From Candidatus Latescibacterota bacterium (GTDB lineage Bacteria; Latescibacterota; UBA2968): a stretch of DNA of 64,000 bases. Location: the NCBI GenBank assembly GCA_965205975.1, contig OZ242195.1, positions 3,456,001 through 3,520,000 on the forward strand, written 5' to 3'. This document shows, piece by piece, positions 21,001 through 45,000 of this stretch. Within the stretch, counting starts at the first letter, position 1, and each line of letters opens with the position of its first letter. Made by a program: the position numbers.

Positions 21001-24000
21001 GGAAATTCAAACGTATCGAAATCAAAACGACGTAATCGTATCCAACTCGAAAACGCCAAAAAAGGAACGCGCGACTGGTTGCTCACTAAGACCGACATCA
21101 ACGACATCGAACCGGTGGCGTTGTGGCGTTCCCCGCGAATCGAGGGCTACTGCTCCGAGACGAGCGTGAGCGCTGGCGACACGCTCAAGATCATGGTGAG
21201 CACGAATCCAGTGTCCCAGTTTGATCTGGAGATCTTCCGCACGGGTTACTACGGCGGAACCGGCGGTCGTTTCATGAAGCGCTTTGATTCTATACAGGGC
21301 AAAACCCAGACCGATCCGTCGATAGGCGAAAACCGTCTGCGCGAATGCCAATGGGAACCTTCCGTAGAATTCGAGATTCCAGACGATTGGCTGAGCGGCG
21401 TCTATCTCGGGAAACTCACTGCCAAGGAGGGCGACGTGCAAAGCTACGTCATCTTTATTGTGCGCGATGATCGCCCCTGCGATTTGCTCTTCCAGTGCAG
21501 CGACATGACCTGGCAAGCCTACAATAGCTGGCCTACCAACGAGTGGTCTCTTTATCACAACGACGAGAATGGCTACACGGGATATAAGAAAAGGAAAAAG
21601 TGGAGCACCAACGCAAACGATACCGGGTGGGTGAGTTTTGACCGTCCCTACGCGCAGTTCTGCCAGGATCATCTTGTCAAGAATCCCAAGTCCGTGGGCA
21701 CGGGCGAATTTCTTCTTTGGGAATTCCCCCTCTCCTATTGGATAGAGCAGCAGGGCTACGATGTGTCGTATATCTCAAATGTGGATACACACAGACACGG
21801 TCCGAGATTACAACGCGCGAAAGGCTTTATCTCGGTAGGGCACGACGAGTATTGGACCCGGGAGATGTACGACAACGTCAGCGCGGCTCGGGACGCCGGT
21901 GTCAACCTTGCGTTCCTGAGTGGTAATTCGGTTTGGGGTGTGGTGCCCTTGCTGCCCTCTGCCGAGGGGCAGTTCCACCGAATCATGCGACGCGAAGATA
22001 AGTTCCTTGGCGAGGAACTCAGCAAGATGTTGAACAAGAGACGCGGCACCCCCGCCAAGTATCCAGCGGGGCCGGACGCGGCGTTGCTCATGGGGGGACG
22101 CACCGCCGGCATTGGCGGAGGTGACTGGACCTGCACCCAACCCAATCACTGGATCTATAATGGGAATGGCATGCAAAAAGGTGACACCATTGATGGACTA
22201 ATAGGCTGGGAATGGCATGGATCGCCTGCTCTCGAACTGCCTAACTTTGAGGTTCTGGCCGAGGGACCGATGCTACCGAAGAGGTACAGTCCTCATGCCG
22301 CTACGATCTACGATGGGCCGAAGAATAATGTCGTATTCAACGCCGGGACGATCTGGTGGGCGCAAGGCTTGTCGTCGCCTCCCGGCCACGTATTGCCCGC
22401 ACACAGGCATGCCAAGCCGAAAGGCCCTGACTCGCGCGTGCAGCGTATGATGACCAATGTGTTCGATCGGTTTATCAAGTAAGGTCCAACAATGGGAAAA
22501 GGAAAAATATGAGCGAATGAGGCTGGGTAAATTGATGGCAAATGATAAACCCACTGAAGAACGCCTTAAGCAAGATAATTGGTTGTTGATGCCTTCAAAA
22601 AACTCCGCGATCTGATTTTTCGCATTGTGCTTACATCACTCATTTGCTATTATTAAGGCATAGTAGTAACGCGTCAGATATTTCATTTTTTAGAGTGAAT
22701 TATAGGTGAAATTGATAGGACAATAAGTGACTAACCCATGAAATTAGAATACGATTTCTCCAGAGCTGAAAGAGGAAAATTTTATCGCAAGGGCGCTGAA
22801 ATCCGGCTGCCAATTTACCTCGATGCGAAACTCCAGCATCAGCTTGAAAAGATCGCGGAGAAGAGAGGGAAAGATTTGGGCGAGATGGTGCATCAACTAT
22901 TGAAAAAGGAAGTGGAACGCGTTGGTGCATTGCCCTGATGTGCATAGGAATATATAGCTGTGAGTAGCTCCACATATAAGAGAATTTAAAACCCCTGGAG
23001 AGATATGCTCTTCAGGGGTGATTTGTTTGTATGGATTTGGGTTCCAAAAGGCGGGAAGCGTCTGGAGACGGATGCAGGTAGTTTAAGACATTGGTCTCTC
23101 AAAAATAGACAAAGACCACTCAGGGAACTGGAACTTTCAATATATACGTCACAAACCCCAACGCGATTGTCAAAAAAGCAACACCAACTGTGACAGTCCA
23201 AAAAATACGTTGACCTATACCCTCAATTTTATCATCAACATAGTTTCTCAATTCTATTTGACCCTCTTGAATGCTGCTGATCGTCTTGTCAATTTTATCA
23301 TCAACATGCATTCTCAATTCTATTTGACCCTCTTGAATGCTGCTGATCGTCTTATCCATATTCTCAATAAGTGTTTCCAGCCTGACAAGACGCTTATCGA
23401 GCTTGTTGATCGCCCTTTCGTTCTGCTGAATACGCTCTTCATTCAGGTCTATTCGTTTATCCAACCGTTTCAAAGTCTCACGATGATCTATATCATGACC
23501 TTCTAACCTCTTGAGTATCTCAATTTGAGTCGCCTGATATTCTTCCGAATTTTTAACATACCGCTCAAGGATGGACACATCCGGCCCTTCTTGCGTGGCA
23601 GCCATATCGCACCTCTGCAATAATGGAAAAATCAACCGTAATGAAACCAAACAGCGTATAATAATGACAAGATAGCAGAAAATAACATGCTAACAAAGCA
23701 TTTTCTGCCAGATAAGCACCTGACTATGAGGGAGCTGAAATCTGACCGCCCATTTACCTCAATGCAAAACCCCAGCACCGGCTTGAACACATCGCTCAGA
23801 AAATAGGCGAAGATTTGGGCGAATGGTGCATCAAATCTTGAAAGCGGAAGTGGATTGAAATTTTAAGCGCACGATGTTATACTACAAAAGTCAATGGAAT
23901 GTCTCAAGAGGATAATGATATGCAACATAAATTGGTCGCTGTAGTCGGCAGCACACCGCAAGTTATGACAGAAACTTTCTGGGCATTGCGTGTCCAGCGC

Positions 24001-42000: not shown

Positions 42001-45000
42001 GCGTATTTGGGCATCTCGACGACCAGGGGCGCACCTTCTTACACGCGGTAATTGGCGCGTGTGCAGACTACAAAGCCGAAATAACCGATTATCAGATCGA
42101 ACGCCTGCATCCGCATCCCATTGGCTGTCCGAAAATCCGCAAACACCTGCCCGACCTCATTGAAACCGTCCCCTGCAACTGCGAATTTGACCTACCAGAA
42201 GGCGGGTACCCCTCTCCCTTGCTACATATCGACCCGGCATTTACCGCTGGCATGGGACGTGTGGATCAACCGCAAAACCGCGAAATAGTAGATCGCTACA
42301 TCACACTGCGCCAGCAAGCCGCACAGGTAATGGCCGACCTATCGCGTACAGAAGATGAAATGCGCGACATATTGCGCCACCGCAAAGGCAAAATCTCCAC
42401 AGGCGTCTGGGTAGTCACAGCGGATGACGCTGGACGATTGCAAATAGGCATTGAGGCGGTTTAAGAATTAAAAATTAAGAATTAAGGGGATCTCACGTCT
42501 TACCGGCTTTCGGGGTTTAATATGGCCGTACTCTACGTCACAGAAACCGGTGCCCAGGTGCGCCGCGAAGGCGAGCGATTGGCCGTGTGGAAAGGCAAGA
42601 AAAAACTCCACACATTGCCTGCGTATGACCTGCACCAGATGGTCTTATTTGGCAACATCGGAATAACACCTGCGGCAATGCACACCGCGCTGATGCAGGG
42701 CATCGACCTCGTATTACTCAGCACCACGGGCAGTTATCGCGGGCGACTCGTCGGACCGCAGGGCCGCAACGTAATACTGCGGCAAATGCAATACCGTCGC
42801 TACGAAGATGAAGATTTTCGATTGGGTGCTGCACGGGGATTTGTATCGGGCAAAATCCGCAACATGCGTACCCTCATCATGCGCCTTGCACGACGCCGAA
42901 ACCGGGACATTGCCCACACCGCACAGCGACTGCGCGCACTCTTAAAACAGATAGACCGCATTGACAATGCCGATGCACTGCGCGGAATCGAAGGTGCGGC
43001 AACAGCGACTTACTTCGGTGCGCTGAGCCAATTTTTACCCTCAGCATTTCCCTTTGTCAAACGCACGCGGCGCCCGCCCAAAGACGCGGTCAATGCCATG
43101 TTGAGCTTTGGCTATACGCTGCTGTCTTCGGACATGGAATCGGCTGTCTTGCGCGTGGGATTAGATCCCTATATCGGTTATCTGCATCTCGTGGATTACG
43201 GACGTCCCTCGCTCGCGCTGGACATGATGGAAGAATTTCGTCCGGTAATTGTAGATGCAATGGTACTGGACCTGCTAAATCACGGACAAATCAAAAAAGA
43301 GGACTTTGAACAGCGCGATGGGGGCGTATTTTTATATGGCGATGGACGACAGCAACTAATCCGCGCCTATCAGGACCGGGTCGCAACTGAAGTTCAATAT
43401 CTACAACCCAGTGGACAGGTACAAAAAGTGCCCTATCGCCAGTGTTTCGAGTTGCAAGCTCGCCGTCTCATCCGCATGTTGCGCGGCGAAGACGCGGCAT
43501 ATCAGCCATTTTTAATCCGATGAGTATTGGAGATCAACGCAATGCTTGTGGTAGTAGCCTACGACATAGCCGACAAACGCCGATTGCGGCGGGTGATGAA
43601 ACTCATGGAAAACTACGGATCGCGCCGACAGAAAAGCGTTTTTGAATGCAACTTGAATGAACGGCGATTTCTCGCGTTGCGGTCTAAAATGTCGGAATTG
43701 ATTGACCCGGAAGACGATCGCATCTGTTATTATCATCTATGTGCAGCATGCGAAAAGCGGGTTGAAGGTATATCCAAACGCGAACATCCCGTGCCAAAAC
43801 GCGAGGATTATGTGATTGTGTGAGCAGATACTTGTATGAGGAAATACATGAAACCTGTCGTCGCGCACAGTGCCAACCCCTATTTACCAGCCACAGCGAC
43901 CTGGATATACGACCAGATCCGCGCATTGAAACGATATCGTCCCATCGTCCTCACACAAACGCGCCAGAACCTGGATCGCTTTCCCATAGAACCCGTCTTA
44001 TCCGCCGAAGATATCTCGCCCATTCGCAGAACAACCCTCCGCCTCATTCGCAAAATGCGCGGCACATACGCGGGCTATGAAAACTGGCTTTGCAAACACA
44101 ACGCCGCCCTCATCCACGCGCACTTTGGGCAAGAGGGATACCGATGTCTCTCCGCAAAACAGCGCACAGGCATCCCCCTGATCACCACCTTTTACGGCCT
44201 GGACGTATCGGCACTACCCCGGCAAAAAAAATGGCAAAAACGATACAAACGACTCTTTGCCGAAGGCGACCTCTTCCTCGTCGAAGGACCCTTCATGGGC
44301 GAACAACTCATCGCACTGGGATGCCCTGCCAACCGGGTAATCGTACAACATCTGGGCGTAGATCTCGACAAAATACCCTTCAGAACAGACCCCACACCCA
44401 AACAACCCATCGTATTGACATACAGCGTATTTCGAGAAAAAAAAGGATTGAAATACGCAATCCAGGCTTATGCGAAAATAGCAGAAAAATATCCGGACGC
44501 CCAACTGCGGATGATCGGCGACGGACCTTTGCGTCCACAACTACAAGCCGAAATACGAAATCTACACCTTGAAAACCGCGTAAAAATGCTCGGCCTGCTT
44601 CCCCATCCCACCGCACTTGAAGAACTAAAACGCGCGACAATCCTCCTCTATCCCAGCGTCACAGCATCAGATGGCGACACCGAAGGCGGTGCCCCTGTCG
44701 CCCTCATCGAAGCCATGGCAATGGGTATCCCCATCGTATCGTCTCAACACGCCGACATCCCCGAAGTCGTCATCGACAAAACCTGTGGCCTATTATATCC
44801 CGAACGAGATGTCGCGGGCCTCGCTGAGGGACTGGACACCCTCCTCAACTCCCCCGAACAATTTGGCCGCGCTGGCCGTGCCCATGTCGAAAAACAGCAC
44901 AACCTAGAGAGACAAGCCGAAAAATTAGAGGTGATTTATGATCGGGTTGTGATGAACCAGCCCCAAGCCCCAAAGTATAATCCTTGACATCAAAAACTAT

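Follow-up and report, generated by a model that had tools for sequence, protein, structure and literature searches.

Can a CRISPR-Cas locus of type III use a single protein to pass its cyclic oligoadenylate (cOA) signal on to sigma54-dependent transcription of its own genes? The question is raised by a Candidatus Latescibacterota locus in which a gene for a CARF5-sigma54 AAA+-Fis HTH protein, here called the activator, heads a type III-B module. The way in which type III systems adjust their expression during infection is understood in few cases. We analyzed the window, i.e., the whole stretch of 64,000 nucleotides that carries this locus, together with relatives of the activator. With a probability of about 0.6, the sequence comparisons suggest that the protein, gated by cA4, activates the cas genes of its own locus through sigma54.

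Gene content of the locus

The following genes and elements were assigned:

23855..23883, +: sigma70-type promoter-like site of the activator gene, TTGAAA-17-TATACT (10/12 match)
23920..25563, +: activator gene, 547 aa (alternative ATG at 23899)
25790..26752, +: cas6 (PF10040)
26990..27340, +: small DUF1232 protein, first gene 3' of P2
27623..28099, no strand: internally deleted insertion-sequence remnant between the DUF1232 gene and cmr1; four longer copies in the genome
28157..35761, +: type III-B operon cmr1, cas10/cmr2, cmr3, cmr4, cmr5, cmr6
29023-30906, +: cas10/cmr2, GGDD kept
32053..33324, +: Cami1-like CARF7-RelE effector of the cA4 class (CARF7--CARF_RelE, 325 bits; PDB 8PHB, E=1.6e-12)
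35697..36497, +: CARF7-DUF2103 gene without its N-terminal part (374-aa form in locus L003)
36836..39786, +: CRISPR array, 39 repeats, spacers of 37-45 nt
40539..43823, +: CRISPR-associated primase-polymerase (primpol), cas1 and cas2 (NF040561, 338 bits, cut-off 200; PF01867; PF09827)

A preliminary description had read the activator as a fusion of CARF, sigma54 AAA+ and Fis-type HTH domains, which was borne out by matches to Cas_NE0113 (132 bits), Sigma54_activat (PF00158, 210 bits), AAA_lid_14 and HTH_8, and to TIGR02584 with 185 bits (cut-off 80.65). Sigma70-like boxes also lie 5' of the activator gene in the relative loci L003, L010, L011 and L012. The type III-B set is complete, with cmr1, cmr3-6, cas6, an array and a cas10/cmr2 whose reported GGDD was confirmed, while an HD motif is absent from the first 120 residues of Cas10. 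The insertion-sequence remnant, presumably IS982-like, is absent from L001. Comparison of the spacers with the own genome gave a single match of 33 nt at 94%.

Three sigma54 sites preceded by paired palindromes

The candidate regulatory elements of the locus are:

25598..25630, no strand: palindrome pair 1, candidate enhancer, copies starting 132 and 113 nt 5' of the -24 box
25695..25719, +: terminator-like hairpin just 5' of P1, kept in L001-L003, L008, L010 and L011
25730..25745, +: sigma54 -24/-12 site P1
26778..26812, no strand: palindrome pair 2, copies at 26778/26799
26911..26926, +: sigma54 site P2, in a second copy of the P1 region
40123..40156, no strand: palindrome pair 3, copies at 40123/40143, directly 3' of a stray repeat (40076-40111)
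40261..40276, +: sigma54 site P3; a single repeat (40294-40329) and then a degenerate one come next
40414..40442, +: TTGACA-17-TAATTT box 3' of P3 with a weak -10, kept in genomes G011, G014, G020 and G023

The motif TGGCAC-N5-TTGC occurs three times in the window (25730, 26911 and 40261) versus 0.26 expected, a number reached in none of 100 shuffles, and the three sigma54 promoters proposed earlier thus withstood this comparison. The strict site is absent from the leader of the 39-repeat array. The palindrome GTGCR-N4-YGCAC occurs seven times versus 0.35 expected; six of these copies form three tandem pairs (25598/25617, 26778/26799 and 40123/40143), one 5' of each promoter as previously described, and the genome-wide count of 31 was reproduced. 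When scored for two palindromes, P1, P2 and P3 reached 20, 20 and 19 of 20 and took ranks 1-3 among the 88 sigma54-like sites of the genome, the other 85 scoring at most 16.

The three promoters had been called near-identical. All are real sites, with the correction that P1 and P2 represent one duplicated promoter, because their regions share 120 of 160 aligned bases. Between enhancer and promoter, both contain a box (1 mismatch) that we take to be IHF-like. The hairpin 5' of P1 may keep the regulator transcript from running into cas6, and the box at 40414..40442, which a consensus scan did not flag, could provide the adaptation genes with a basal sigma70 promoter. What had been taken for a mini array after P3 proved to be one repeat and a degenerate repeat, the decayed trailer end of the 39-repeat array.

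Distribution of the activator and its sites among relatives

A sigma54-like site lies 86-279 nt past the activator stop in 16 of 17 loci (window included) and follows none of 124 stand-alone CARF5 genes, a control in which many taxa may be without sigma54. In L130 the fusion is present and the sigma54 site is missing. The combination of palindrome and promoter was found in 6/8 same-genus genomes with the activator and in 0/13 without it, counts that overstate independence because the genomes are kin. Four activator-less type III genomes of the genus lack a sigma54/palindrome site before cas6, cas10 and primpol; rpoN is present in all four and was confirmed in the genome studied here. The activator-less loci without the promoter site include one cmr operon that is 62-78% identical to that of the window. 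In 12/12 Latescibacterota loci the proximal palindrome is spaced at 111-113 nt or, shorter by about one helical turn, at 103 nt, and in L001 and L003 the palindromes show the symmetric change AGGCA-N4-TGCCT. All 12 adjacent Cas10 proteins tested keep GGDD. A composite-motif match in G004 was regarded as unrelated, as no cas gene lies within 3.1 kb.

The proposed control of the adaptation genes was only partly upheld. P3 is found here and in G011, G014, G022 and G023, and is missing in G020, G031, G033, G034 and G035; a promoter before the adaptation module is not universal, as its absence from G020 illustrates.

Full-length homologues had been thought to be confined to Latescibacterota, which was refuted by their presence in other lineages. 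In Kryptonia-type loci, the activator is placed between a III-A module and a sigma54 site preceding type I-B genes, and both the HTH helices and the palindromes differ from those of Latescibacterota. Across relatives the activator heads III-A, III-B and III-D modules, so its position at the head of a III-B module holds for the window and not as a general rule, and type III genes adjoin it in all loci with enough sequence. A search of the ESM Atlas matched nothing beyond generic sigma54 activator clusters. Separate origins of the Latescibacterota and Kryptonia fusions, suggested by a quick tree that split them, are not proposed here, as a single clade was compatible with an AU test on 25 rows (p=0.66).

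A CARF5-type sensor

Its sequence places the CARF in the Cad1/Crn1-like CARF5 class, whose members bind cOA, and not in the RtcR class. The CARF5 profile matches it with 249 bits, and this class is listed as binding cA4 or cA6. Residues E18, D90 and G126-R127-K128, the aligned equivalents of E17, D75 and G104-R105-K106 in Sso2081, are invariant in 23 aligned rows, and GGRK is present in 104/104 relatives. Three RtcR profiles cover residues 226-545 only, in agreement with the earlier statement that the CARF is not of the divergent RtcR type. RtcR profiles are absent from the 15 matches of residues 1-217, full-length RtcR matches begin at residue ≥226, and NF038308 reached 290 bits, below its cut-off of 650. 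Motif I reads G-S-T here and G-[NS]-T in 99/104 relatives, compared with G-T-S in Crn1-type ring nucleases. A single-sequence model of the CARF was weak (pLDDT 58); its best matches were Card1, Sso2081 and Cad1 (Z 8.7-8.8, rmsd ~3.5), with which unrelated Rossmann folds tie.

An intact AAA+ core with a variant sigma54-contact loop

The NtrC-type assignment of the AAA+ domain stood with regard to core motifs and fold: Walker A and B, the R-fingers and sensor II are all intact, and the model matches bacterial enhancer-binding protein (bEBP) structures with Z 25-30 and rmsd 1.8-3.5. The sigma54-contact loop needs correction, as it reads GAYSGQ, three changes away from GAFTGA. Two papers on loop variants support GAYTGA, GAYTGS or GAFSGA, and the combination GAYSGQ is not among them. 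This loop occurs in only 4/104 relatives, the variant [GA]/[GT]YTGQ in 50/104. We distinguish form A, with a GAY[TS]GQ loop as in the window, from form B, which occupies the same genomic slot with a different AAA+ core; GAFTGA or a close loop is found in form B and in the Kryptonia clade. A FastTree-only AAA+ tree, which separates forms A and B from each other and from the Kryptonia form, serves as a lead only. The HTH of the activator stops early, and close relatives differ greatly in its helix although the palindrome remains similar.

Proposed circuit

In the circuit that we propose, the activator would be made from its sigma70-type promoter, and its HTH would bind the tandem 14-bp palindromes ~110-135 nt 5' of the three sigma54 promoters. 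When a Cmr complex meets target RNA, Cas10 would make cyclic oligoadenylate, most likely cA4, in support of which the same operon encodes the Cami1-like effector of the cA4 class. Binding of the signal by the CARF dimer would then allow the AAA+ ring to assemble and hydrolyse ATP, and DNA looping, probably aided by IHF, would carry the activator to sigma54-RNA polymerase, so that cas6, the cmr/Cami1/array operon and primpol-cas1-cas2 would be upregulated. The CARF may slowly cleave the signal, and the activator would therefore reset itself.

At the sequence level, the case for control of the three sites by the activator is strong, and the defence genes are probably upregulated once an invader is detected. 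The earlier proposal that a CARF signal leads to sigma54-dependent cas transcription is supported in that the linkage of sites survived the controls and a second clade is wired alike with other palindromes. We infer DNA binding, the identity of the ligand, activation rather than repression, ring-nuclease activity and activity of the GAYSGQ loop. Several observations speak against this best reading: the GAYSGQ loop, the early stop and variable helix of the HTH, the retention of activator and promoter beside a truncated cas10 in L128, the missing sigma54 site in L130 and the genomes that lack P3. In addition, it leaves unexplained where the first Cmr complexes come from, should P1 and P2 be silent in the absence of signal and the hairpin stop read-through.

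That difficulty would be resolved if the promoters were activated by default, with cOA binding or cleavage by the CARF dampening the response and the protein serving in signalling mainly as a ring nuclease or off-switch. Kinship of the CARF with the ring nucleases Crn1 and Cad1 also favours this explanation, as does L128, which keeps activator and promoter beside a truncated cas10. However, the CARF of RtcR holds its AAA+ domain repressed until ligand binds, Cad1 is switched on by cOA, and motif I is G-[SN]-T here and not the GTS needed by Sso2081, which makes activity by default unlikely. Slightly less probable again is that the protein activates cas genes through sigma54 but responds to another input, such as 2',3'-cyclic phosphate RNA ends, linear A2>p, or a partner, e.g. 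DUF1232. RtcR ignores cOA and responds to RNA fragments and partner proteins, A2>p at high concentration can activate TaqCad1, and a DUF1232 gene lies 3' of the promoter in 8/11 Latescibacterota loci. Such an input is opposed by the RtcR-type profiles, which leave the CARF uncovered, by the basic residue after strand 4, mostly missing in RtcR and invariant here, by the type III genes at every locus with enough sequence, and by RtcB, which, as reported before, was not found in the 98% complete genome.

Two further explanations concern the output. The rarity of GAYSGQ, the short HTH and the unlike AAA+ cores of forms A and B in one slot could mean that form A contacts sigma54 poorly and is a weak activator, or a repressor on the palindromes. 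We consider this improbable, given the intact core motifs, the conservation of the loop variant and the perfect sigma54 sites retained at constant spacing in form A loci; moreover, repression alone would do nothing, because a sigma54 promoter needs an activator. Alternatively, the palindromes may be read by another activator, e.g. an NtrC-like one, with the CARF fusion a mere neighbour. The genome has 21 other bEBP-type AAA+ loci, and the inter-palindrome junction of P2, TGCAC-N7-GTGCA, resembles what we assume to be an NtrC site. Yet the spacing at the junction takes values of 5 to 7 whereas the N4 core is constant, the palindrome pair occurs at no other sigma54 site of the genome, and the sites are absent where the fusion is absent and different where its HTH is different, which leaves another reader highly improbable.

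We therefore retain the cA4-gated activator as the best reading. On a wider view, which we regard as evenly balanced, CARF5-bEBP proteins would form a portable, self-resetting, protease-free switch from cOA to sigma54 that keeps its position while the effector modules behind it are exchanged among III-A, III-B and III-D, and whose HTH and 14-bp operator have diverged jointly. In Kryptonia, III-A RNA sensing would turn on the I-B interference and adaptation operon, which, if true, would account for the fusion of III-A and I-B in one locus.

Comparison with known systems

Induction of cas genes by type III signalling is already known from Csa3, CalpL-T-S and CASP-sigma. Our searches of the literature outside the 2020 CARF census, which may list the architecture, found no description of a sigma54 route or of a CARF5-sigma54 AAA+ fusion. 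If true, a single protein that links cOA to sigma54 would represent an additional route, reversible and driven by ATP. Such a switch would place crRNA processing, interference and spacer acquisition under joint induction and provide a mechanism for bacterial type III to type I cross-talk. The activator might double as a genetically encoded reporter of cOA. Since the parts are named at base level and both sigma54 and IHF are present in E. coli, the circuit is directly testable.

Within the CARF5/Crf5 family (Cad1; NE0113 = Csx14, the 'Csm6 ring nuclease' of TIGR02584; Crn1 Sso2081), the sensor and the nucleotide-binding motifs are shared with the activator. The outputs listed for this family are a deaminase, the CARF alone or a REC-type HTH, and none is a sigma54 AAA+ domain. 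TaqCad1 forms hexamers, each with three bound cA4, an arrangement that would fit a hexameric AAA+ ring. RtcR, PspF1 and PspF2, found at rtcBA, restriction-modification and CoCoNuT loci, are likewise CARF-AAA+-HTH proteins with a sigma54 mechanism, and the PspF-like and CoCoNuT cases are linked to defence, as here. Their sensor, however, is the divergent RtcR CARF, whereas that of the window is CARF5, and RtcR has a very low affinity for cOA, which does not activate it. The targets here are cas operons; the 2014 table of PspF neighbourhoods contains no CRISPR or Cas word.

Csa3, an archaeal CARF-wHTH protein that binds cA4, also places a CARF on a transcription factor and connects cas and adaptation genes with type III signalling, cross-talk from type III to type I included. 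It differs in having neither an ATPase nor a sigma54 partner, the CARF sitting directly on the winged HTH, and DNA binding by Csa3Sso was independent of cA4 in vitro. CalpL-CalpT-CalpS and the type III-E CASP system (Csx29-Csx30-CASP-sigma) turn on transcription upon type III activation, as proposed here, and the locus of CASP-sigma itself contains three of its sites, one of which precedes cas1. While these systems free an ECF sigma factor by proteolysis, the activator of the window would act as one protein, reversibly, through ATP hydrolysis and the host's sigma54.

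The CARF5-bEBP Fusion and Its Locus

The gene at the head of the type III-B locus encodes a CARF5 sensor fused to a sigma54 AAA+ domain and a Fis-type HTH (CARF5-bEBP, where bEBP denotes a sigma54 enhancer-binding protein). It is followed by cas6, DUF1232, the type III-B operon, a Cami1-like CARF7-RelE gene, a 39-repeat array and primpol-cas1-cas2. A palindrome pair lies upstream of each sigma54 site.

15643–18135: fused BsuBI/PstI-type restriction-modification gene, ~6 kb upstream of the regulator
23920–25563 (+): CARF5-bEBP fusion, 547 aa
25730: sigma54 site P1, before cas6
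26911: sigma54 site P2, before DUF1232
27623–28099: insertion-sequence remnant with an internal deletion, between DUF1232 and cmr1, downstream of P2
35697–36497: CARF7-DUF2103 gene that overlaps the end of cmr6 and has no N-terminal CARF part
40261: sigma54 site P3, before primpol-cas1-cas2

The four domains reported in the preliminary description (Cas_NE0113, Sigma54_activat, AAA_lid_14 and HTH_8) were recovered, as was the assignment of the sensor to the Csm6-type CARFs (TIGR02584, 185 bits versus a cut-off of 80.65). In PADLOC, residues 1–201 match CARF5 with 249 bits, and the RtcR, PspF1 and PspF2 profiles align only from residue 226 onward. CARF5 is given as cA4- or cA6-binding in the 2025 classification (supplement 1 part 2), and among the supplements searched the sigma54 fusion is absent from the table of that part. 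The CARF-family profile matches Cad1 and Sso2081 (E about 3e-5), whose ring-nuclease and Cad1 background is known from earlier papers. E18, D90, R127 and K128 are invariant in the alignment of the fusion family and were compared with E17, D75, R105 and K106, which handle cA4 in Sso2081; motif I of the fusion is G-[SN]-T, whereas that of the ring nuclease is G-T-S. Because the operon has a Cami1-like effector and, according to published work, signals are rarely mixed within one type III locus, cA4 is the favoured candidate ligand of the window CARF.

Since Cas10 retains GGDD, as described before, and no HD motif was found in its first 120 residues, the type III-B system is likely to rely on its nucleotide signal. 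The genome contains rpoN and four HU/IHF-family genes, while a genome search found no RtcB, the rpoN and RtcB results both agreeing with the earlier account. The supposed mini array, however, turned out to be the main array's decayed trailer. Among the genomes compared, the insertion remnant is present only in the window genome (it is absent from the related locus L001), where four copies of ~1.05 kb of the insertion sequence occur at other sites; the remnant could have a polar effect on the cmr operon. The start of the CARF7-DUF2103 gene is matched in L001, and L003 carries a 374-aa form.

Promoters and Palindromes

Sigma54 sites (3 found versus 0.26 expected) and palindromes (7 versus 0.35) were located at the positions first proposed. 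All three sites are real, P1 and P2 being one duplicated promoter (120/160 aligned bases). Sigma54 use is wide in this genome, with 88 TGGCAY-N5-TTGC sites and 21 other bEBP-type AAA+ loci. When each of the 88 was scored (maximum 20) by its two best upstream palindrome copies, the CRISPR promoters ranked first with 20, 20 and 19, the next best reaching 16. P1 and P2 contain, with one mismatch, what we take to be an IHF-like box. The terminator-like hairpin ahead of P1 leaves basal cas6 and cmr expression unexplained, so that leak or low basal activity would be required. P3, which has a sigma70-like box on its 3' side, was found in five genomes (G000, G011, G014, G022, G023) and not in G020, G031, G033, G034 and G035. 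In G020 (L208:17500–18860), the array is broken by an insert with a second DUF1232 gene and P3 is missing.

The fusion is present in 8 of 21 genomes of the same genus, and the palindrome-plus-promoter composite occurs in 6/8 genomes with it versus 0/13 without, counts that come from kin and are not independent trials. The remaining two (G013, G019) carry palindromes of variant sequence at normal spacing. In other genera, 1/10 genomes had a composite match, with no cas gene nearby. Four genomes (G015, G021, G026, G030) have Cas10 and rpoN but no fusion, and the regions retrieved show no such site before cas6, cas10 or primpol; the cmr operon of G030 is 62–78% identical to that of the window and lacks the sites. 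The second loci of G011 and G023, which have no fusion, likewise lack the sites. In G021, G026 and G030 (L110, L114, L119), cas6 is distant from the cas10 operons, and G021 has two cas6 copies 9 kb apart.

A sigma54-like site lies 86–279 nt past the fusion stop codon in 16/17 loci, window included and leaving out L007 and L236, whose stretches end too early, versus 0/124 stand-alone CARF5 genes (of 140 supplied, 16 without a usable match or flank were set aside). The proximal palindrome starts 111–113 or 103 nt upstream of the -24 box in 12 Latescibacterota loci.

Relatives and Exchanged Modules

PF09623 and PF00158 occur together in 103 of 120 listed proteins (query included), which divide into forms A and B. 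The regulators of the Latescibacterota loci L001–L012 are of two allelic forms with a common CARF N-terminus, a common slot before cas6 or DUF1232, and differing AAA+ cores. The sigma54-contact loop is mostly GAYTGQ or GTYTGQ in form A, to which the window protein belongs, and near GAFTGA in form B; the forms are about 43–51% identical. Over its first ~89 residues P0070 (form B) matches P0005 (form A), a pattern suggestive of recombination.

The effector module 3' of the cassette varies, being III-B in the window and L001, III-A in L003 and L006 (in L005, cas10 lies ~4 kb beyond the end of the locus) and III-D-like in L004 and L008–L012. In L004, L009 and L012, the first effector gene encodes a large TIGR03986 RAMP protein (III-D-like) with an N-terminal cold-shock domain. 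Formylglycine-enzyme-like, ankyrin, Ser/Thr kinase, DUF4407 and FHA genes stand between the sigma54 promoter and the III-A cas10 at L005:12059–21617, so that the switch may also govern a non-cas module. At L009:12437–13063, the sigma54 promoter and DUF1232 are followed by an EcsC-family gene; one predicted CASP-sigma target in the type III-E locus is likewise EcsC-like.

Full-length homologues had earlier been found only in Latescibacterota, a limit that did not hold: an exhaustive search found P0249 and then 12 proteins of the same layout, all with intact GAFTGA and one named Candidatus Kryptonium. L127 has the order III-A module, fusion, sigma54 site, type I-B cas8b1-cas7-cas5-cas3-cas4-cas1-cas2 and array; L128 shares it with a damaged III-A module, and L129 and L131 have the fusion and a TGGCAC-N5-TTGA site ahead of contig ends. 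The palindromes are GTCGG-N4-CCGAC (L128, L129) or GCCGA-N4-TCGGC-like (L127, L131), and the HTH helices change in step with them. A test of the fusion's origin did not reject a single one. The I-B/III-A fusion was reported in the Kryptonia paper, in whose main text the word 'sigma' is absent. Small ORFs come first behind the sigma54 site, before cas8b1 (L127:12092–12424, L128:12019–12384), with shorter membrane-like ORFs 5' of them; neither matched NCBIfam, nor did that of L127 match PADLOC.

Proposed Mechanism and Known Systems

Anatomy, motifs, linkage and controls come directly from the sequence analysis, and the feature is real. We propose that the regulator would be made from its own sigma70-type promoter and occupy the palindromes, that cOA binding would lift CARF repression, by analogy with RtcR, whose AAA+ domain is repressed by its CARF, and that the AAA+ ring would then open the sigma54 promoters. 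We put the probability that the fusion protein is the activator of these sites at about 0.85; that cOA switches it on appears somewhat likely.

Several observations count against this reading, among them the hairpin ahead of P1, the insertion remnant and the absence of P3 from five genomes, described above. The loop of the window protein, GAYSGQ, is not among the variants of the cited papers, in which GAYTGS or GAFSGA activators from Desulfovibrio are regarded as active and HrpS functions, at reduced activity, with GAYTGA. The HTH of the window protein stops early and varies between close relatives. In L128 the circuit is kept beside a truncated cas10, cut to its N-terminal 249 aa (L128:6070–7051), with activator and type I-B operon intact and csm2 and csm3 not seen. 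A third, divergent CARF5-bEBP (L130:1874–3622, 583 aa, GAFTGA) lies between CRISPR repeats near cas6, and no sigma54 consensus was found in L130 despite the fusion.

Our literature searches turned up no account of CRISPR loci in which a cOA-class CARF is joined to a sigma54 activator, an absence from print that is not secure, as a 2024 survey set regulators aside and the 2020 CARF census lay outside the search. If confirmed, the circuit would be a switch from cOA to sigma54 and, in the Kryptonia-type loci, a link from type III to type I. A 2014 study placed CARF-AAA+-HTH proteins in divergent RtcR and PspF-like families, linked to RNA repair or restriction-modification and not to CRISPR, and a tie to CoCoNuTs was reported later. 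Csa3, CalpL-T-S and CASP-sigma are known examples of type III systems controlling transcription. The window activator would act like RtcR, yet is not a member of that family, and the logic of its circuit resembles that of CASP-sigma or Csa3.
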